A stretch of DNA of 64,000 nucleotides from a virus. Lineage: Duplodnaviria; Caudoviricetes. This document shows, piece by piece, positions 2,813-47,222 of the stretch. Every line of letters starts with the position of its first letter. Within the stretch, counting starts at the first letter, position 1. A program made the translations under genes and the position numbers. Location of the stretch: positions 1-64,000 of IMG/VR virus record IMGVR_UViG_3300028914_000062; one strand, written 5' to 3'. The notes beneath the pieces were generated by a model. It did no database searches, was not told the origin of the DNA, and worked only from the letters and a program-made list of their open reading frames with translations.

Positions 2813-3163
2813 TTACCGAGAATTGTTTTCTCGCCATTTCCGTAAACGTTCAGCAGCTGCCTGTTTCTGCTCTTCGTTCACTATATTCGCCACCGGCTTC
2901 TTCGTCCTAAAACTTATGCAGTTTAAGTCTATTTTGTAAATAATGCCGGTGACCTCTCCTGCTGCGTTGGTATGTTCTTTTTCAATAACAGCGGTTCCTC
3001 CATCGACGCATTTATCCAGTTTGGTAATCATGGGACCTTCACAGGTATAGATCGAGTACGACCCATCCCCATTCACATGGTTAATTACAGTTTCTCTTTC
3101 TTCTACGGGTCCCAGGTTATAATTACGCGTTTTCATGATCAGACGTATCTCCTTCCGGAACAA
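2813..3163 (-). CDS. Hypothetical protein, paralog of the upstream gene
   Basis: RNYNLGPVEERET resembles RVYNLDPPEKQHT in the neighbour; real start probably MKTRNY. Confidence 0.6.
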   Translation of the reverse strand: MFRKEIRLIMKTRNYNLGPVEERETVINHVNGDGSYSIYTCEGPMITKLDKCVDGGTAVIEKEHTNAAGEVTGIIYKIDLNCISFRTKKPVANIVNEEQKQAAAERLRKWRENNSR

Positions 3164-9706: not shown

Positions 9707-10387
9707 TTATCCTTTCTTTTTATCCTTGCGTCCGCAACCATACTTTTCGGGACAGTAGCCCAAAAGCTCACACTTGGGAACCAGGTAGGTATCGACAATA
9801 TATTTCCACTCTTCGGAATACTCAGAAAGCGCCGTCATAATATCCTTCATAAGAGTTCTATATTCCTTATACGCTCTGGTACAGAGTCTCTGATGACTCA
9901 TATCTATAAAGTTGCGAAGGTTGCGCTTATCCACAATCTTGGTGGTCATGCCAAGGGGGAGGAGCATTGCAATATCTTCTCTCGGTATTCCCCGGAGTTC
10001 AAGCAAGCCCATGGTCCGCGAGACCGAACGCATGAACTCGGTGTATATGGTCTTGGCAGTTTCATCCTTCTGAATTGTCTCAGGGATAACATACTCAAAA
10101 TTGCCATAGTCAATATACCTTGTTGACGCCTGTAATCTCGTCGGCGCTCCACCAATATGAGTATACCATTCACGGATAACTCTAGCAGAGTAGCCGTCGA
10201 GTACAAGCTCCATATTGACAAACTCAAGAGTGCGTCCGTGATTATTTTCGATGCACTCGAGTCCTCTCTTATAGTTCTTTTTAGGGTCAGAAATATCACT
10301 GCCCCAGCATATTCCCGCTCGTTCACCGATTAAAGTAATCGGATTTTTTGTCGTTTCGGGTAAAATTATAACCTTTCCCATACTCAT
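9707..10387 (-). CDS. thyX: FAD-dependent thymidylate synthase
   Basis: HGRTLEF, SARVIREWYTH, QASTRY, NLRNF...QRLCTRA motifs. Confidence 0.9.
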   Translation of the reverse strand: MSMGKVIILPETTKNPITLIGERAGICWGSDISDPKKNYKRGLECIENNHGRTLEFVNMELVLDGYSARVIREWYTHIGGAPTRLQASTRYIDYGNFEYVIPETIQKDETAKTIYTEFMRSVSRTMGLLELRGIPREDIAMLLPLGMTTKIVDKRNLRNFIDMSHQRLCTRAYKEYRTLMKDIMTALSEYSEEWKYIVDTYLVPKCELLGYCPEKYGCGRKDKKKG

Positions 10388-10423
10388 TCTCCTGTATATT
10401 TATACAAAGTATTGTGTAATTAT

Positions 10424-16368: not shown

Positions 16369-17172
16369 TTAAGCGGTTACTGCTTCGACGCTAAATTCCA
16401 ATTCGATTTCCGCGCCCGCAAGATTGGCTTTATTATTCGTATAAACAACGGATTCGTTGCCATCGTAATAGATATAAAGATCAATAACAAGGACGTCGTC
16501 GTCGACAATATTGGAGGCTCCCTGAATGGAAACAGCGGTGCCATTATCCGCAGAAGTAAGCACAGCGATAACATTGTCTTCGGTCGCAAGTAAAATCTTA
16601 GCAGCAGTAATATCCGAACCTCCCGCCTTCTGAGTAAAGGTCGGAGTAACGGTCAGCGAAGCCGCAGGATTGGAGCCTACAGCAACGGTTAAGTACACAG
16701 TCTTTTTAATGACGTAATCAGTGAAGGCCGTCAATTGAACTGCGGATCCTGTCTTCATGGTCGCGGCATCGGGAGACTCTGCATTGGCAGTATACCAGTT
16801 AGTTACTGCCGCAGCAGTAGCCTGAGTGGTAATTAAAGCGCCAGGGGTAGTAATAGCATTACCTTCGATAGTTTTGCTAGCAGTCGTCAGATACGCCGCT
16901 TCCGCACTTGTAAGCACAGGAGCCGAAGGATAAACCTCCGATTCTGCGTCTGTCATAGCAAAATCAACTTCGGTAGTGGCAGCAGCTTGGATCTCAGCAG
17001 CGGTGTCATTGTCACCGGTACCAATTAAAAGGTACGTTTCATTGGATTGCGCAGTTATCTGCATACCAATTGCAGTGACTTTGGTACTCATAGCGAACCA
17101 AGCATAGGTGGAAGAAGTAAGCATTACTGTTGCCACCAACAACAGAAACGCTGTCATAATAAGTTTCTTCAT
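16369..17172 (-). CDS. Secreted protein with SipW-type signal peptide (TasA/camelysin/pilin-like)
   Basis: MKK-hydrophobic-TYAWF signal peptide; Ala/Thr-rich beta-type body. Confidence 0.7.
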   Translation of the reverse strand: MKKLIMTAFLLLVATVMLTSSTYAWFAMSTKVTAIGMQITAQSNETYLLIGTGDNDTAAEIQAAATTEVDFAMTDAESEVYPSAPVLTSAEAAYLTTASKTIEGNAITTPGALITTQATAAAVTNWYTANAESPDAATMKTGSAVQLTAFTDYVIKKTVYLTVAVGSNPAASLTVTPTFTQKAGGSDITAAKILLATEDNVIAVLTSADNGTAVSIQGASNIVDDDVLVIDLYIYYDGNESVVYTNNKANLAGAEIELEFSVEAVTA

Positions 17173-17197: not shown

Positions 17198-17275
17198 TCC
17201 CAGCAACCAGACTTTCTCCTTATGGAGACTCTCGGCTTTGTGTCTACGCCTCGCGACGCAGTTACCTTTTAGGAT
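17198..17275 (-). promoter_or_regulatory. c-di-GMP-I (GEMM) riboswitch-like element
   Basis: GGTAAC-TGCGTC-GCGA-GGCGTA-GACACAAAGCC-...GTCT...-GGTTGCTG resembles the GEMM-I consensus; in the 5' UTR of the SipW-type gene. Confidence 0.7.
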
Positions 17276-17306
17276 TGATTGTATTGGCTTCTTAAGTGAG
17301 GTATAT

Positions 17307-18288: not shown

Positions 18289-18383
18289 TAGGAAGAAGGA
18301 TGGGATTTGAACCCATATCAAGGATGTTTCGCGGCACTACTCCTTACCAAGACCCGAAGCTCTACCGTTGAGCTACCTTCTTC
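18289..18383 (-). ncRNA. tRNA-like RNA with canonical acceptor, D and T arms but an expanded non-canonical anticodon domain
   Basis: GAAGAAGG/CCTTCTTC stem, GCTC-AACGGTA-GAGC D arm, ATGGG-TTCAAAT-CCCAT T arm, about 42 nt between them. Confidence 0.6.
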
Positions 18384-19339: not shown

Positions 19340-19382
19340 CCCAACCATTATATTAAATGCGACAAGAGTCACATGAGTCTTC
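19340..19382. repeat. 43-bp imperfect direct repeat, copy 1 (copy 2 at 20363-20405)
   Basis: 38/43 identical by hand alignment; the copies flank the radical SAM gene. Confidence 0.85.
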
Positions 19383-20367
19383 AATCTCCAGTTTTATTTG
19401 AAATTAAAGCATTTCCGCAAGTTATTCTGTCGCTATCTTCTTCTTTGCTCGGAACGAATACTATAACATCCCAACCGGCTTTTACCAAAGGCTGCTCAAA
19501 CTCTCTATAAACATCATAATCCGTATATGACGTAGTCACATTGAATCCGTTTTCTACAGCAGATTTAGTTTCGTGGATTGGAGTGATCTTTACGATAAAC
19601 TTTTCCTTGTCGAACAGGGAAGACAACACATCGGCGTCGAGAATAGTATCTTTGGTTACTGCAAAATTCAATGTGTATTTTCTTCCGCGAGGCATAGGCA
19701 ACTTTTTAGCCAACTTAGAAATCTCGCCGAGACTTAAGCTCATACCGTTAAACTGCTTATCTCTCTGTTCATCGCTTGTACTATTGATACTGAATTGCAG
19801 TCCGGCTTCGCCCTTATAATCGTTGTTTTTAATATCGCACCACCGCATAATAAACTCTTCGAGGTTCTTGTTCGACTTCGGGAGCATAGTAGATATTACC
19901 GGATGTACCGTATCAGCAACTATATGATGCGCGACAATCTGTCTCAGGTGATTGAGGGCAAAGTCCAGCACTGACGTATTGAATGTTGGTTCTCCCATCC
20001 GAGCGAAATGTACATTGAATCGCTCGGTGTGAGTTATATCGGGTTCCCCATCAAGAATGGTTTCAATTTCATCACACAATTCAGCGAGTGAAGCATTTCC
20101 ATAGAACCCATACTTAGGACAGTCACAAAATTGGCATCTCATAGGACAACCCTTTTGAGTACTTATTGTTGCGACCCACTTTTTTGTAAGATCTACTGCT
20201 GTATTTGCTACACCGTTGATCTCTTTGTGTAATCCGAGAAAATCCGCCTTGATATTATTCTCTTTTCCATAATCACCAACAGTAAGAAATTCAAGTCGAT
20301 GATCTCTATCAACGTATATTTTACCAGTATGCGTTTTAATTATCTCAAGCATAATCCAATCCCCCAA
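19381..20367 (-). CDS. RlmN/Cfr-like radical SAM enzyme
   Basis: ISTQKGCPMRCQFC, MGEP, FSINS and C-terminal TCG motifs. Confidence 0.8.
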   Translation of the reverse strand: MGDWIMLEIIKTHTGKIYVDRDHRLEFLTVGDYGKENNIKADFLGLHKEINGVANTAVDLTKKWVATISTQKGCPMRCQFCDCPKYGFYGNASLAELCDEIETILDGEPDITHTERFNVHFARMGEPTFNTSVLDFALNHLRQIVAHHIVADTVHPVISTMLPKSNKNLEEFIMRWCDIKNNDYKGEAGLQFSINSTSDEQRDKQFNGMSLSLGEISKLAKKLPMPRGRKYTLNFAVTKDTILDADVLSSLFDKEKFIVKITPIHETKSAVENGFNVTTSYTDYDVYREFEQPLVKAGWDVIVFVPSKEEDSDRITCGNALISNKTGD

Positions 20368-20658: not shown

Positions 20659-20897
20659 GTGAGACCTTATTGCACCTTGCACCAGCAGGAGTCGAACCTG
20701 TTGGTTTGCGGACTCGAACCGCGCTTCATTCTCACGACCCGCCGTGGGGAGTTGTTTGACTTGTCTTTGTCGCAACGCAGGGTGGTGATAGTACCTTGCA
20801 TTGCTCTCCTGTATTTATCCTCTCGCAGGAGCCCATTGAGTAATGGTTTTTCACGATCAATTACTATCACTAATTGTCAGAGAGTTCCCCGTCTCAC
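20659..20897 (-). ncRNA. Candidate multistem structured ncRNA (~240 nt) with two tandem T-loop hairpins
   Basis: Closing GTGAGAC/GTCTCAC; GGGGA/TCCCC, GTGATAGTA/TACTATCAC and CTCCTG/CAGGAG stems; TTCGAGT and TTCGACT loops. Confidence 0.55.
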
Positions 20898-20942
20898 GCT
20901 GATTTGCTTAATGTTGCAATCATAAGCTGGGACCAGCACCCT

Positions 20943-21016
20943 TGGCGAGCGATGAAGGTGCTGCCCCCTCAACTCCGGACTCAAATTCCGGCGTGATGCT
21001 GTTTCACCAATCGCTT
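20943..21016 (-). tRNA. tRNA-Gln(TTG), atypical
   Basis: CCGGA-ATTTGAG-TCCGG arm, G73-CCA, A1:C72 mismatch, GGCAGCA T-loop. Confidence 0.75.
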
Positions 21017-21185: not shown

Positions 21186-21258
21186 CAGGCTCTGTGGGGC
21201 TCGAACCCACACCGCCGGCCAAAAGGCCAGCATGCTCTCCTTTTACACCATCACCCTA
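21186..21258 (-). pseudogene. Degenerate tRNA
   Basis: Good T arm GTGGG-TTCGAGC-CCCAC but mismatched acceptor stem, 8-nt anticodon loop and no CCA. Confidence 0.55.
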
Positions 21259-21563: not shown

Positions 21564-21850
21564 TGGCGGGGGCGCTCACCGCGGTCTGTGAGTACTGTTG
21601 GGTTCCTACTACTCTATGTTGCCATAGCCATTTTCGTGTTGTAGTCTGGCACATGTCTTTACCATATCTTTTGACTTAGGTAGTGGGTATATGTGCTCTA
21701 CACATTTATGAGATTTCTCAATTTAGCTCGGCGTTATCCCATAAGGACTTTCGCCGAATTAGCCCACATTCACATAAGAAGTTTCCTATCTTAGTGTCCC
21801 ACGGTTTATACCGAGAGCCAACTGTCTTATACCGAATAGACTACGCCCCT
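21564..21850 (-). tRNA. Amber suppressor tRNA (anticodon CTA, probably Gln) split by a group I intron; exons 21850-21814 and 21604-21564
   Basis: Spliced product has AGGGGCG/CGCCCCC-G-CCA acceptor, GTCT/AGAC D stem, GTTGG-CTCT^AAC-CCAAC anticodon arm, CTCAC/GTGAG T stem. Confidence 0.85.
21605..21813 (-). mobile_element. Group I self-splicing intron (209 nt, no ORF) in the tRNA anticodon
   Basis: 5' exon ends in U with U.G in P1; P3 GTGGG/CCCAC; P4 TTCGGCG/CGCCGAG; P7 GCACAT/ATGTGC after GTAGA and AAGAC joiners; P8 TACC/GGTA; P9 CTATG-GCAA-CATAG; terminal G. Confidence 0.88.
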
Positions 21851-21966
21851 ATATATATGGGAGTGAAGGTGTCCTCCCGGTCCCGCCTCCGTTAATTGGC
21901 GGTTTCGAACTCCATCATGTTGGCAATAGTGTGATGTTCGCAACGCCTCTATTGCCCAATTTCAAA

Positions 21967-22494
21967 TTAGAAATCCCAGATAGCTTTTCTCTTACGGATC
22001 TCTTCGGCTTCCTCGGCAGCCTTCTTAGCATCCTCAGCGGCCTTGTGCGCTTTCTCAGCATCCTCTTTCGCCTTGTTGAGCTTGGCAATCTCCTTATTAA
22101 GAAGATCAGCAATACCATCGCAACAGGTATTTCTCATACCGAACTTGTAGTTGGCACCAGGATAGACCTTACCGAAAGACTCCCAGTTTATATTGACAAC
22201 ATCTTCTTTGCCAGGAAGGACAAAGTAAGTTTCACCATCGCTGAGTTTGAACTCACACTTCGGAGTGACTTTCTTATCCTTACACGCCATTACAAACTCA
22301 AGCTGTTTGAAATCAGCATCGCGAAGGATTACAAGACAGTTCGAAATGGTCTTGAAATCGACACCGTTTTCAGGTTTGACTATGGCCACACCAAAACGTT
22401 CGTCTTCGAGGGTGATTTCAGCACCCATCTTGCCAAGGGTTTTACAGGCTTCCAGTACCTCAAGGGTTTTAATTTCTTTCGTGTTTTTTCTCAT
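21967..22494 (-). CDS. Hypothetical protein with C-terminal coiled coil
   Basis: First gene after promoter 22528-22568, upstream of the suppressor tRNA. Confidence 0.7.
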   Translation of the reverse strand: MRKNTKEIKTLEVLEACKTLGKMGAEITLEDERFGVAIVKPENGVDFKTISNCLVILRDADFKQLEFVMACKDKKVTPKCEFKLSDGETYFVLPGKEDVVNINWESFGKVYPGANYKFGMRNTCCDGIADLLNKEIAKLNKAKEDAEKAHKAAEDAKKAAEEAEEIRKRKAIWDF

Positions 22495-22527: not shown

Positions 22528-22568
22528 ATTATAGCACATTATTTTTCCTTTGTCAAGCGAAATATCAC
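22528..22568 (-). promoter_or_regulatory. sigmaA-type promoter with palindrome; nearest consensus promoter upstream of the tRNA island
   Basis: GTGATATTTCGC-TTGACA-17-TATAAT. Confidence 0.85.
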
Positions 22569-23647: not shown

Positions 23648-24214
23648 TTAATGATTCGTTAGCTTATTGTAATCTCTTTGTATATAGCTGAAATACGTGT
23701 TATCACCAAGGACGCGCATATAAGGTTCACGAGCATAGCCTCCGGCATTAAAATACATTACATAGGCAGGTAGCGTTGTTCCGTATTTTTCAATAAAGTC
23801 TACAACCGCAAAGTTCTCAGTTCTTGGAGTAGTTTTCTTTAATGATCCGGCAACAGTGAACTGTCCCTTAGCATAAATGACCTTTTCTATAGTGTTACCC
23901 CAGTAACCATAAGCCAGTCGATTTAAGACAACCGAAACAATACCACACTGTGTTTCAAAACTCTCTCCTCTACCCTCTCTATAAACGAGCTGGGCGAGAA
24001 GTAGTCGTTCAGAAGCCGAAAAGTGGTACGCATATTCGGGCTCACTCTCGACTTCTATGTATACCACTTCTTCTACTATCTTTTCAACCTCTATTATGGT
24101 CGGTTCAGGAGGTGTAGGTTTGGGCTGAAGTGCAACACCTATTGCAATCCCAAGAACAAATATAATTGTTACGATAAAAAGAGACTTAACATTATTTATC
24201 ATTTGTTGTCTCAT
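23648..24214 (-). CDS. Membrane-anchored SleB-like cell wall hydrolase (Hydrolase_2)
   Basis: N-terminal TM; LAQLVYREGRGE, VVLNR, VIYAKGQF. Confidence 0.85.
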   Translation of the reverse strand: MRQQMINNVKSLFIVTIIFVLGIAIGVALQPKPTPPEPTIIEVEKIVEEVVYIEVESEPEYAYHFSASERLLLAQLVYREGRGESFETQCGIVSVVLNRLAYGYWGNTIEKVIYAKGQFTVAGSLKKTTPRTENFAVVDFIEKYGTTLPAYVMYFNAGGYAREPYMRVLGDNTYFSYIQRDYNKLTNH

Positions 24215-43636: not shown

Positions 43637-46006
43637 TTAACCTTCGAGATACTTACGTATTTCTGAAACTCCTTTATATTTTTTGAAACTGTCTCCGGTT
43701 TTTACTATCAAAGTAGGGGCTTGCATAACCTCATATTGTTTGGCAATTTCCGGATGCTCAGTAGCATAAATCTTTGTATATTGTTTATTTGCCTTGTCCA
43801 ACATAGCACCAGCAACTTTACAGTTGGGACAAGTTGGGGTTGCAATTAGAATTAATTCAGTCTCTTCAATTTTACATAAATCACAAGACTCTTCTTTTAC
43901 ATTCGCTTCCTCAAAATGATGTTTTGCAAATGAAGAGCCAATATCATAAACTTTACGATCTTTAAATTCTTGTGACTTGCCGTCGTTCCAGTTCTGAACG
44001 GGACGGTAATAACCGGTTATGCGGCTGTAGACCTCGGTCTTTTCGCCGCACTCGGGACAGGTCTCCTGCTCGCCCGCGAGATATCCATGTGTTTTACACA
44101 CGGAGTAAGTGGGAGAAAGTGTATAATAAGGAAGTTTATAATTTTCTGCTATTTTACGAACAAGCGTCGCGGCAGCCTTCCAGTCGGGAAGTTTCTCGCC
44201 GAGGAAGGCGTGGAAGACGGTGCCCGAGGTGTAGAGGGTCTGAAGCTCGTCCTGGATATCGAGCGCCGAGAAAATGTCCTCGGTGTAGCCGACGGGCAGG
44301 TGAGACGAGTTGGTGTAGTAGGGGGTGTCGTCGCACGACCTAGCAGCAGTAATAATACCAGGGTAGGTTTCTACATCATGCTTGGCTAAACGATAGGCAG
44401 TGGATTCAGCCGGCGCCGCTTCGAGGTTGTAGAGGTCACCATACTATTCTTGATAGTCGGAAAGGCGCTCTCTCATATGATTAAGCACCTTAATCATAAA
44501 CTGCTACGCCTCTTTGGTTGTTAAATCTTTACGGATCCACTTAGCATTCAAGCAACATTCGTTACCACCAACAGTAGCGATTGTAGAGAAGTGATTATGA
44601 AAGTCACCCAAATATCTTTTTGTGTATGGGTATAAACCATTTTCCAAAAGCTGGGTAATAGTTTTGCGTTTAATATCAAGAGATCTCGCGGCAATGTCCA
44701 TCAAATGATCAAGACGCTTAAAGAAGTCCTCCTCATTTTCGGCTAGATATCCTATACGAGGAAGATTTATAGTTACTACGCCAACGGAACCAGTACTTTC
44801 ACCAGAACCGAAGTAACCACCGGACTTTTTACGAAGTTCTCTTAAATCCAGACGGAGCCTGCAGCACATGGAACGAACGTCGGATGGCTCCATATCCGAG
44901 TTGATATAATTACTAAAATATGGGGTGCCATATTTAGCCGTCATCTCAAAGAGAAGACGATTATTTTCAGTATCGGACCAGTCAAAATTTTTGGTAATAG
45001 AGTAAGTGGGTATGGGGTATTGAAAGCCGCGCCCATTAGCATCGCCCTCAATCATAATTTCAATGAAGGCTTTGTTGACCATATCCATTTCCTTTTGACA
45101 ATCCTTATATCTGAAATCCATCTCCTTACCGCCAACAATACAGTTAAGTTCGGCAAGGTCCGGAGGAACGACCCAGTCCAATGTAACATTAGTAAAAGGT
45201 GCTTGAGTACCCCAACGGCTCGGTGTATTCACACCATAAATAAACGACTGGATACATTGCTTAACTTGCTTATATGTTAAATTATCTGCCTTTACAAACG
45301 GAGCTAAATAAGTATCAAAGCTAGAAAAGGCCTGTGCTCCAGCCCACTCATTTTGCATGATACCAAGAAAGTTAACCATCTGATTGCAAAGGGTAGAAAG
45401 GTGGCTTGCAGGAGAGGAGGTAATTTTCCCAGGTACTCCACCAAGACCTTCCTAAATTAATTGTTTCAATGACCATCCGGCACAATAGCCAGAAAGCATA
45501 CTTAAGTCGTGAATATGCATCTCGGCATTTTTGTGAGCATCGGCGATCTCTTTATCGTAAACTTGATTAAGCCAATAATTAGCAGTAACTGCCCCAGAAT
45601 TAGAAAGGATCAATCCGCCAATGGAATAAGTAACGGTAGAGTTTTCTTTAACTCTCCAGTCGTTTACTTTTAAATAGTTATCCACTAATTTTTTATAATC
45701 AAGCATTGAATTATGTGCGTTTCTGAGTTTTTCTTGTTGTTCTCTATATAATATATATGCTTTGGCAACGTCTTCATAACCCGATTTAATCAAGACGGAT
45801 TCGACGCTGTCCTATATTTGCTCTACTGAAAGTTTACCATCCTAAATCTTGTTCTCAGCATCCGCCACGGCTTTAAGGGCCAAGAAATCGATAATATCTG
45901 CGTTGAAATCTCGATTACAGCCCTTAAAAGCCTTAGTGATAGCATTAATAATCTTAGTCAGGTCAAACTCCACGAGGCGTCCGTTGCGTTTGACTATTTT
46001 ATACAT
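43637..46006 (-). CDS. nrdD: Anaerobic ribonucleoside-triphosphate reductase with ATP cone and C-terminal glutaredoxin-like domain (5 in-frame TAG)
   Basis: IVKRNG ATP cone, HIHDL, SMCCRL, YSRITGYYRPV glycyl motif, CPNC; TAGs at 45842, 45812, 45452, 44504, 44444 all in frame. Confidence 0.95.
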
Positions 46007-46010
46007 ACTT

Positions 46011-47222
46011 TCACTCTTTTTCTTCAATATTTTCTTCTGTGGTTTCAGGCGCATATTTAGTCAGAATTCTATTCATATACTGATCAAATGTTTCTGTCTC
46101 TATACCAAGGTTCTGACCCACCATGCGCTGGCGTTCTCTATGATAAATAATTTGTCTTTCAACTTCACTTGCGTTCATATAAAAACCAATATACTTGGTA
46201 TAGAATTTCGCTGTTGATTCAGCAAGCATATCAAGCCATTTCTGATCAATGCCTCTCCAATGATTGCACTGTGTCAGAAAATACAGGTAGAAAACAACCT
46301 GACATACAGTGCCAATAGACGAGTCAGCCACACGGCCGCCCTCTCTGACAAAAATTTCTTCGAGCATCAAGTCTATGGCTTTAACAAAAGCAGCCATACC
46401 ACTATACTGGTATTCTGCATCGTTCGATCTTGTAATCGAGGTTGGTGTCCATTTCCATACATACGTCAAACTATCTATATAAGTCTTCTTTTCCGTAAAG
46501 TGAAAAGCGAGACCATTAAAGAAAGAGTCTTCTTGAATTCTAAGCTCCGGATGAAATGAAATGCGGTTTTCATTTATATAAGACCTTTTATAGACCTTGC
46601 CGTGCATCCAAGTATTATCATTCTGATGAGTAATATAAGTATATCTCCCATCAGGAAGTAATTTTTCCTCCAACCAACTCGTGTTTACCAAATCAAACTT
46701 ATCTTCTTTGATGGCATCATAAAACAGAGAGAATACGCCAACCGAATGAATTACATCATCCGAGTCTGCAAACATAAGATAATCTCCCCTTGCATTATGA
46801 ATGCCAATCTGTCTTGCTACGCCGGGACCGCCATTGCTGAGCGCTCTAATAACCTTCGGTTTAATATGAGCGAACTTATTAAGATTCTCAGCAGTAAGTT
46901 CTGATTTTGTTGAAGCATCATCAACAATTATAACTTCTACCGTGCTCATGTCAACGCCAATCTGTCCGTCAATACTTGTAAGCAGGGGCTCCATCATGGC
47001 AAAGGGGGTGTTATAATAAGGAATTATAACGCTCAATCTGATATGGGGTTCCTGGGGCTTTGGAGCAGTCGCAAGATTAGCACAGGCTTCTACAGCTGTC
47101 TGAACATCAGCGCATGCATCTTGTGCGATTTCGGCAAATTTGTCGGCGGCTTTTTCCATTTCAACAGAGCTAACAAACTCACTCTGAGTCTCTTCAATTG
47201 TTTTTACCTTTTCTTCTTCCAC
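46011..47222 (-). CDS. Glycosyltransferase family 2
   Basis: SVIIPYYN, VDDAS, GPGVARQIG, FADSDD, QEDSFF. Confidence 0.88.
   Translation of the reverse strand: MEEEKVKTIEETQSEFVSSVEMEKAADKFAEIAQDACADVQTAVEACANLATAPKPQEPHIRLSVIIPYYNTPFAMMEPLLTSIDGQIGVDMSTVEVIIVDDASTKSELTAENLNKFAHIKPKVIRALSNGGPGVARQIGIHNARGDYLMFADSDDVIHSVGVFSLFYDAIKEDKFDLVNTSWLEEKLLPDGRYTYITHQNDNTWMHGKVYKRSYINENRISFHPELRIQEDSFFNGLAFHFTEKKTYIDSLTYVWKWTPTSITRSNDAEYQYSGMAAFVKAIDLMLEEIFVREGGRVADSSIGTVCQVVFYLYFLTQCNHWRGIDQKWLDMLAESTAKFYTKYIGFYMNASEVERQIIYHRERQRMVGQNLGIETETFDQYMNRILTKYAPETTEENIEEKE

Follow-up and report, generated by a model that had tools for sequence, protein, structure and literature searches.

According to Williams (2020, 10.1101/2020.01.27.920355), the bacterial tRNA settings of group I introns have been extended from 4 to 21 (i.e. 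by a further 17), and the tRNA-Leu(UAA) IC3 intron of cyanobacteria, plastids and bacteria is denoted 'Leu.3Ug', with the layout CUU/...g/AAAA. Suppressor tRNAs are encoded by recoded phages, including crAss-like phages, Lak phages and others (Yutin et al. 2021, PMC7886860; Borges et al. preprint, 10.1101/2021.08.26.457843), and recoded genomes without a detectable suppressor have also been noted, for which host-encoded or very divergent suppressors were suggested (Yutin et al. 2021, PMC7886860). In Lak megaphages, a tRNA-Tyr(GTA) and a putative tRNA-Thr(TGT) contain 'enigmatic' introns, which the accessible text of Devoto et al. (2019, PMC6784885) neither classifies as group I nor links to a suppressor. 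The locus described here lies in a 64,000-nt stretch of phage DNA (hereafter the window), i.e. the first 64 kb of the 134,923-bp IMG/VR record IMGVR_UViG_3300028914_000062, in which genes are almost all on the minus strand. On this strand, positions 21850–21564 hold a split tRNA gene whose exons of 37 nt (5') and 41 nt (3') flank a group I intron of 209 nt. The locus is probably an amber suppressor tRNA gene into which a compact intron is inserted after tRNA position 35 and before position 36; this intron looks like an inherited passenger and not a purpose-built timer. It represents a known tRNA group I intron type in a new setting, i.e. an amber suppressor of a phage, the body of which is in addition unusual for a tRNA. 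No paper on an intron-split suppressor tRNA was found in the full-text literature, a search that did not cover the settings table of Williams (2020).

The intron resembles the Leu(UAA) intron in its homologous core (75–81%), its P2–P9 architecture, a guide abutting P2, a terminal omega-G, a P9a capped by a GNRA loop, a site in the anticodon loop and exons held together by the anticodon stem. Its site lies one position further 3' (35/36 as compared to 34/35; 'position 4' in the numbering of Williams 2020), its guide is GGA and not GAG, and the interrupted loop is CUCU/AAC in a class I Gln-type amber suppressor and not the CUU/AAAA of tRNA-Leu. The introns of Azoarcus tRNA-Ile(CAU), Agrobacterium tRNA-Arg(CCU) and cyanobacterial tRNA-fMet are likewise small and of IC3 type, with anticodon-loop sites, a U at –1 and a G at omega, but sit in bacterial sense-codon tRNAs. 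With the published suppressors of recoded phages, the locus shares a phage-encoded tRNA(CUA), TAG read as glutamine mainly in late genes and a TAG-free block; those genes are, however, contiguous and scanner-detected whereas this one is intron-split and divergent in its T arm. The Lak introns, as far as the accessible text describes them, are similar in being inserts in the anticodon region of phage tRNAs in a TAG-recoded phage.

A sequence-only reading of the window had assigned the insert to group I, and the coordinates and motifs on which it relied were all present in the sequence. This assignment was supported by an Rfam match, by homology to an intron family and by covariation. The Rfam model Intron_gpI (RF00028) matched positions 21825–21646 with 26.7 bits (local E of 1.2e-4). 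In blastn searches the insert matched phage tRNA introns with 75–81% identity over ~190 nt and E values down to 1e-44, and this homology spanned P2 to the last intron base, stopping short of the exons. Scanning of IMG/VR with the P4-P5-P4' motif produced 53 loci (L081–L133), among which were many unannotated phage copies of the Leu(UAA)-type intron. Nearly all homologous introns sit in tRNA-Leu(UAA) at CUU^...G^AAAA, with a few in Leu(CAA), Asn(GUU) and CAU tRNAs. Eleven compact members of the family were aligned (alignment A1) with a hand-drawn P2–P9 structure that included the P3/P7 pseudoknot. In this alignment, 94.4% of cells were paired as compared to 30–40% in slid controls, both sides had changed in 35 of the 57 pairs, and the window's copy formed 55 of the 57 consensus pairs of the family. 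The insert was thereby confirmed as a group I intron, far beyond chance.

The splice junction was placed by homology and covariation. In-silico joining of the exons at U35 and G21605 produced, as the sequence-only reading had maintained, a 7-nt loop (CUCUAAC) with the anticodon CUA, in a 78-nt product, and this was the sole junction with a U at –1, a G at omega and a 7-nt loop. The 3' end of the intron aligned column by column with the ...GUAGUA(A/G)G^AAAA ends of the Leu introns, which places omega-G at 21605 and the start of the 3' exon at AACCCAAC. The guide GGA occupied the same columns of A1 as GAG, the guide by which the Leu(UAA) introns pair with C32-U33-U34, and base pairing together with alignment position put the U.G wobble at U35.G21799. 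The register was clinched by a second phage contig, L091 (IMGVR_UViG_3300028048_000245), in which the exon end GGCUCU, the guide GGA and the 3' junction UAGG^AACCC are all shared. The intron position between tRNA residues 35 and 36 was borne out by both the family register and L091.

The joined exons folded into a cloverleaf of –24.8 kcal/mol, as compared to a minimum free energy of –25.2 kcal/mol, with an acceptor stem of 6 bp plus an A1xC72 mismatch, a 4-bp D stem, a 5-bp anticodon stem and a 5-bp T stem. The anticodon loop was canonical (i.e. 7 nt with U33, CUA and A37), and the 3' exon ended in GCCA. Complementarity between CGGU of the D loop and ACCG of the T loop was considered and not used, the chance of such a match being estimated at ~1 in 7. 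Like the suppressor, a neighbouring tRNA-Gln(UUG)-like gene has an A1xC72 mismatch, G73 and an encoded CCA, together with a T loop of GGCAGCA and a D loop without GG; it was not detected by ARAGORN in bacterial mode or by Rfam. At 21186–21257 on the minus strand, the tRNA model gave a weak match of 26.3 bits, which falls short of the gathering score. Its T arm is canonical, but the anticodon loop has 6 nt (CUUUUG) and the acceptor stem three mismatches, and it is probably a tRNA pseudogene.

An orthologue of the element was found in a related ENA contig (L260) with 94.8% identity, both the intron and the leader directly 5' of the tRNA being kept. The two copies exhibited 18 differences, 16 in the intron and two in the exons. 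Both exon changes affected the partners of one anticodon-stem pair across the intron, converting U-A to C-G (U31 to C, A252 to G), and further compensatory double changes were present in P8a and P9b of the intron. Selection acts on exon pairing. In two other related contigs (L261 and L262), an intron-less tRNA(CUA) follows directly after the same 43-nt leader (88% identity) and has a CUCUAAA loop, a U1xU72 mismatch, G73, CCA and a T loop of GGCAGCA; the L261 copy was missed by ARAGORN in bacterial mode. An intron-less, class I-shaped UAA tRNA adjoins the suppressor in L261.

The sequence-only reading had further treated TAG as a sense codon and was right to do so, the late genes being open only under this reading and TAG aligning with glutamine. 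With TAG read as sense, coverage of 56–60 kb by open reading frames (ORFs) rose from 0.14 to 1.0. In-frame TAG codons numbered 25, 25, 19 and 84 per ORF (25 in one of 1534 aa and 84 in one of 4245 aa), with >300 in the 135-kb genome. Replication genes also contained TAG (two in dnaB and five in nrdD) whilst the endolysin gene (23648–24214) had none. Three of the five TAG sites of NrdD aligned with glutamine in 60/60, 56/60 and 60/60 homologues, and the remaining two were variable positions with glutamine among the residues; because of these alignments, TAG was assigned to glutamine. No contiguous CUA tRNA, and no tRNA outside 17.5–21.3 kb, was found with ARAGORN and the Rfam tRNA model across the 135 kb, and no phage GlnRS or GluRS gene and no release-factor gene were found in the genome. 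The identity set of E. coli GlnRS favours U35, G73, a weak or open 1-72 pair and G10. As the suppressor has U35, G73, an unpaired 1-72 and G10, and as TAG occurs at glutamine positions, it is most likely charged with glutamine.

The sequence-only reading had proposed a search of other recoded phages for the same split gene; the unrelated phage of L091 hides its only CUA tRNA in a like manner. This tRNA(CUA) gene contains a homologous group I intron of 359 nt; its joined exons were recognized by ARAGORN as a standard tRNA(cta) and the intron option returned tRNA(cta) i(35,359). The L091 phage is TAG-recoded, with ORFs containing 6–8 TAGs, and had no protein match to the present phage at an E of 1e-5. 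Both loci have the junction GGCUCU^...UAGG^AACCC, the guide GGA and TAG recoding, but L091 differs in its canonical T loop, its tRNA body and its intron, which is longer and carries insertions in P6, P8 and P9. A tree of intron cores was unresolved and neither joined nor separated the two CUA introns as sisters. Two junction patterns used against viral contigs retrieved only L091 and L259, an unrelated protein-gene intron, and a metagenome scan returned the L091 contig again and otherwise chance matches. Exact-pattern scans of viral contigs gave no matches for either the 5' exon or the T arm, and a viral-contig scan with TAGAGTAGTARGAAC gave chance matches only. Long-intron ARAGORN calls on all loci were mostly artefacts joining neighbouring tRNAs, the credible ones being the Leu(taa) calls and L091. 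Among 80 loci around a radical-SAM gene (described below), no sequence homologue of the element was present; distant relatives (~185 kb) carry canonical, non-homologous Sup(CTA/TTA) tRNAs upstream of this same gene.

In the mechanism proposed for this locus, the precursor would be transcribed from a host-type promoter, probably together with the upstream ORF. The intron would fold so that its guide GGA pairs with U33-C34-U35, placing the U.G wobble at U35, and guanosine would attack after U35. Docking of omega-G (21605) would then allow the exons, held by the 5-bp anticodon stem, to be joined into the 78-nt tRNA with the loop CUCUAAC and the anticodon CUA. Charged with glutamine, most likely, this tRNA would decode the >300 in-frame TAG codons. 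Splicing would be obligatory for a working tRNA and is probably constitutive. The intron has the appearance of a passenger that was once mobile and has since been inherited, and is regarded as dispensable because the tRNA(CUA) that follows the same leader in L261 and L262 has no intron. For the recurrence in L091, a mobile intron that spreads into CUCU|A loops is as good an explanation as any adaptive account.

Several observations weigh against this interpretation. The T arm is non-canonical, with a CUCAC/GUGAG stem, an 8-nt loop (AGACCGCG), no T-Psi-C and C53-G61 in place of G53-C61, features that were unmentioned in the sequence-only reading. Lowered thresholds did not lead ARAGORN to accept the joined exons in bacterial mode, and neither exon was matched by the Rfam tRNA model (RF00005). 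Only the mitochondrial mode of ARAGORN accepted the joined exons, such that the ARAGORN check proposed for the spliced 78-mer succeeded in this mode and failed in the bacterial one. An intron-less copy of this very tRNA was not found, the tRNA of L261 and L262 having a different body. The match to the intron, at 26.7 bits, lies below the RF00028 gathering score of 50. Two members of the intron family reach this score (L115 with 67.9 bits and L120 with 61.5 bits) and other clear homologues fail; the low score is therefore attributed to weakness of the Rfam model, whose seed holds no bacterial sequence according to Williams (2020, 10.1101/2020.01.27.920355). A genome-wide RF00028 profile search of the phage's own genome missed the element altogether, and negatives of this search therefore carry little weight. 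Finally, decay does occur in the tRNA region, since 21186–21257 looks like a pseudogene, and the record is estimated to be 81% complete, such that a canonical suppressor could sit in the missing part; an ENA assembly of 135,188 bp, nearly as long as the record, weakly counters this last point. The divergent T loop, the lack of scanner support, the apparent pseudogene and the incomplete record would all suit a decaying or non-functional tRNA gene, with TAG decoded by a suppressor from the unsequenced part or from the host. This explanation is considered unlikely: the gene has four intact stems and encodes CCA, the exons are conserved above the intron in L260, where the sole exon change is compensatory, and the intron itself is intact with 55 of 57 pairs. 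Furthermore, a 1x72 mismatch, G73, CCA and non-T-Psi-C loops are common to the tRNA-Gln(UUG) companion and the L261 tRNA(CUA), and a standard-code host is not expected to supply an amber suppressor. The odd body is thus argued to be a lineage-specific tRNA type and not a product of decay, because the L260 exons are under selection and both the companion and the tRNA in the L261/L262 slot are alike. In an unlikely extension of this view, the lineage would use the distinct architecture (i.e. 1x72 mismatch, G73 and non-T-Psi-C loops) for glutamine and amber decoding, perhaps escaping host defences directed against tRNAs. Alternatively, the non-canonical elbow (i.e. the T loop) and the presence in this phage and its relatives of several other tRNA-like RNAs with altered anticodon domains could point to a non-decoding RNA, acting as a decoy for tRNA-targeting host defences, a primer or a regulator, that happens to show CUA. 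The fully canonical anticodon loop (U33, CUA, A37) and the co-varying anticodon stem make this very improbable, as do the requirement of TAG = Gln decoding for exactly such a tRNA and the presence of a tRNA(CUA) in the same slot in relatives.

A role for the intron as a switch was also weighed. The sequence-only reading had proposed that splicing turns on TAG decoding and hence the lysis and virion genes; the precursor would then build up early, and regulated or slow splicing would decide when TAG becomes readable and so time lysis and virion production. The CUA anticodon is nonexistent before splicing and, as the gene is located downstream of a host-type promoter in a TAG-free block, something besides transcription could set the timing. 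The ribozyme is also kept intact in L260 by compensatory changes, but such conservation is expected regardless, because an essential tRNA requires its intron, whatever the kind, to remain able to splice. The arrangement is common to two unrelated recoded phages; however, the same slot is intron-less in related contigs, distant relatives have canonical intron-less suppressors, and introns of this family also split Leu, Asn and CAU tRNAs of the ordinary kind, which require no switch. TAG occurs in dnaB and nrdD as well as in late genes and is absent from the endolysin gene, a sigma-70 type consensus promoter lies upstream, and no regulatory element was seen. Small IC3 tRNA introns (e.g. of Azoarcus and Anabaena) splice fast in vitro, which also counts against a switch. 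On the strength of the intron-less relatives, the sense-tRNA introns, the TAG distribution and the promoter, the switch was not upheld. A scheme in which splicing is rate-limiting or regulated during infection (e.g. through GTP/Mg2+ levels or a factor of phage or host origin) and gates the change of code, such introns being adaptively retained in the suppressor tRNAs of unrelated recoded phages, is distinctly unlikely. A different splice register, either with a 5' site after U33 or with a CGA junction, would give a product that is not an amber suppressor. The Rfam alignment does place the conserved wobble G opposite U33, and the first bases of the intron, CGG, can pair with CCG in an alternative P1 with a longer stem. 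Nevertheless, once omega-G has been fixed by homology, a site after U33 shortens the anticodon loop to 5 nt, a CGA junction would demand a C at –1 and another omega-G, and the 7-nt loop arises from U35/G21605 only. L091, with identical exon ends and guide, yields a canonical tRNA(cta), and the tRNA-Asn of L128 carries an intron of the same family between positions 35 and 36. Both the U33.G register and a bulged-U register with the CGG/CCG extension were consequently rejected in favour of the family register, which upheld the wobble at U35 against the Rfam placement, and a product other than an amber suppressor is extremely improbable.

A constitutively spliced suppressor tRNA with a passenger intron is, accordingly, the preferred interpretation. 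If correct, decoding of >300 codons hinges on a ribozyme reaction, and splicing offers an accessible point at which to study a change of code. Two separate causes of undetected suppressors are apparent, i.e. a group I intron in the anticodon and a non-canonical T arm. Standard scanners did miss this gene, as the sequence-only reading had expected: neither ARAGORN, whether or not its intron option was used, nor the Rfam tRNA model found anything. The wider idea that intron-split genes hide suppressors gained support from the only CUA tRNA of L091 being similarly split. Exon-aware searches (e.g. tFind-like approaches or the ARAGORN intron option) and relaxed tRNA models are needed before a suppressor is called absent. 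The range of the intron family now includes phages and a new setting (i.e. 35/36, CUA).

Coordinates of the split tRNA gene, the elements of its intron and the neighbouring features (window numbering)
Feature	Position	Strand	Description
tRNA 5' exon	21814–21850	–	acceptor 5' strand, D arm (GG in loop), anticodon-stem strand GUUGG, C32 U33 C34 U35
Group I intron	21605–21813	–	209 nt, without ORF, tRNA-intron (IC3-like) family
tRNA 3' exon	21564–21604	–	A36 A37 C38, anticodon-stem strand CCAAC, 4-nt variable loop, T arm, acceptor 3' strand, G73, encoded CCA
Internal guide GGA	21797–21799	–	directly abuts P2; pairs A-U33, G-C34, G.U35
P2	21796–21771	–	
P3	21767–21763 with 21687–21683	–	
P4	21757–21752 with 21733–21728	–	
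P5	21748–21736	–	
P6/P6a	21727–21702	–	
P7 (GCACAT/ATGTGC)	21696–21691 with 21654–21649	–	
P8	21682–21660	–	
P9	21645–21608	–	P9a capped by GNRA loop GCAA
Omega-G (terminal G)	21605	–	aligned with omega-G of all family members
Conserved leader	21851–21892	–	directly 5' of tRNA; hairpin GGGAG...CUCCC, then AUAUAUAU
Sigma-70 type consensus promoter	22528–22556	–	TTGACA, 17 nt, TG-TATAAT; 12/12; pattern match only
Companion tRNA-Gln(UUG)-like gene	20943–21016	–	cloverleaf in ARAGORN mitochondrial mode only

The split tRNA gene sits within a TAG-free block. The sigma-70 type match lies upstream of both the ORF at 22494–21967 and the split tRNA, and may drive the transcript containing this tRNA. 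The conserved leader may act as a promoter or a processing signal; as it occurs once in the 135-kb genome, a role as a repeated promoter motif was rejected.

Other members of the intron family were observed in unusual tRNAs. In L118 (~10135–10423) and L131 (6598–7001, minus strand), phage tRNA-Leu(CAA) genes contain an intron after C34, and the P1 splice-site pair is therefore C-G and not U.G; Williams (2020, 10.1101/2020.01.27.920355) reported this 'Leu.3Cg' type solely from Proteobacteria. The tRNA-Asn(GUU) gene of L128 (minus strand) is interrupted by an ORF-carrying intron between positions 35 and 36, at CUGU^...G^UAA. In seven loci (L082, L089, L095, L098, L099, L111 and L112), class I-shaped UAA tRNAs with a short variable loop are split by a Leu-type intron, a UAA anticodon on a body unlike that of tRNA-Leu being unusual.

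A tRNA-like gene at 18292–18382 (minus strand) has normal acceptor, D and T arms, with a domain of ~32–45 nt replacing the anticodon arm; it is 88% identical to a sequence in L011 (4533–4608), with covariation in the acceptor stem. Tentatively similar genes, with anticodon domains judged by eye to be comparably enlarged, are present in L040 (~3023–3130) and L046. Downstream of the tRNA-Gln-like gene, a structured non-coding stretch of ~170 nt (20780–20945, minus strand) is 81% conserved in L261 and L262, and two T-arm-like hairpins lie just beyond it at ~20680–20730; no Rfam family was found in either region.

The gene at 19381–20367 (minus strand) encodes a radical-SAM protein distantly related to RlmN/Cfr (TIGR00048 with an E of 1e-8, far under the cut-off; PHROG 24834). 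At least 129 viral contigs encode relatives of this protein, and several of these relatives adjoin tRNA clusters and suppressor tRNAs. As RlmN makes m2A37 in tRNAs, the protein might modify the phage tRNAs. Upstream of the ORF at 17172–16369, a c-di-GMP-I riboswitch was detected at 17199–17276 (minus strand) with 50.3 bits, above the gathering score. The NrdD protein (43637–46054, minus strand) exhibits 76–79% identity to NrdD of Clostridia, Ruminococcaceae and Eubacteriales genomes, a similarity that points to a Clostridia host.

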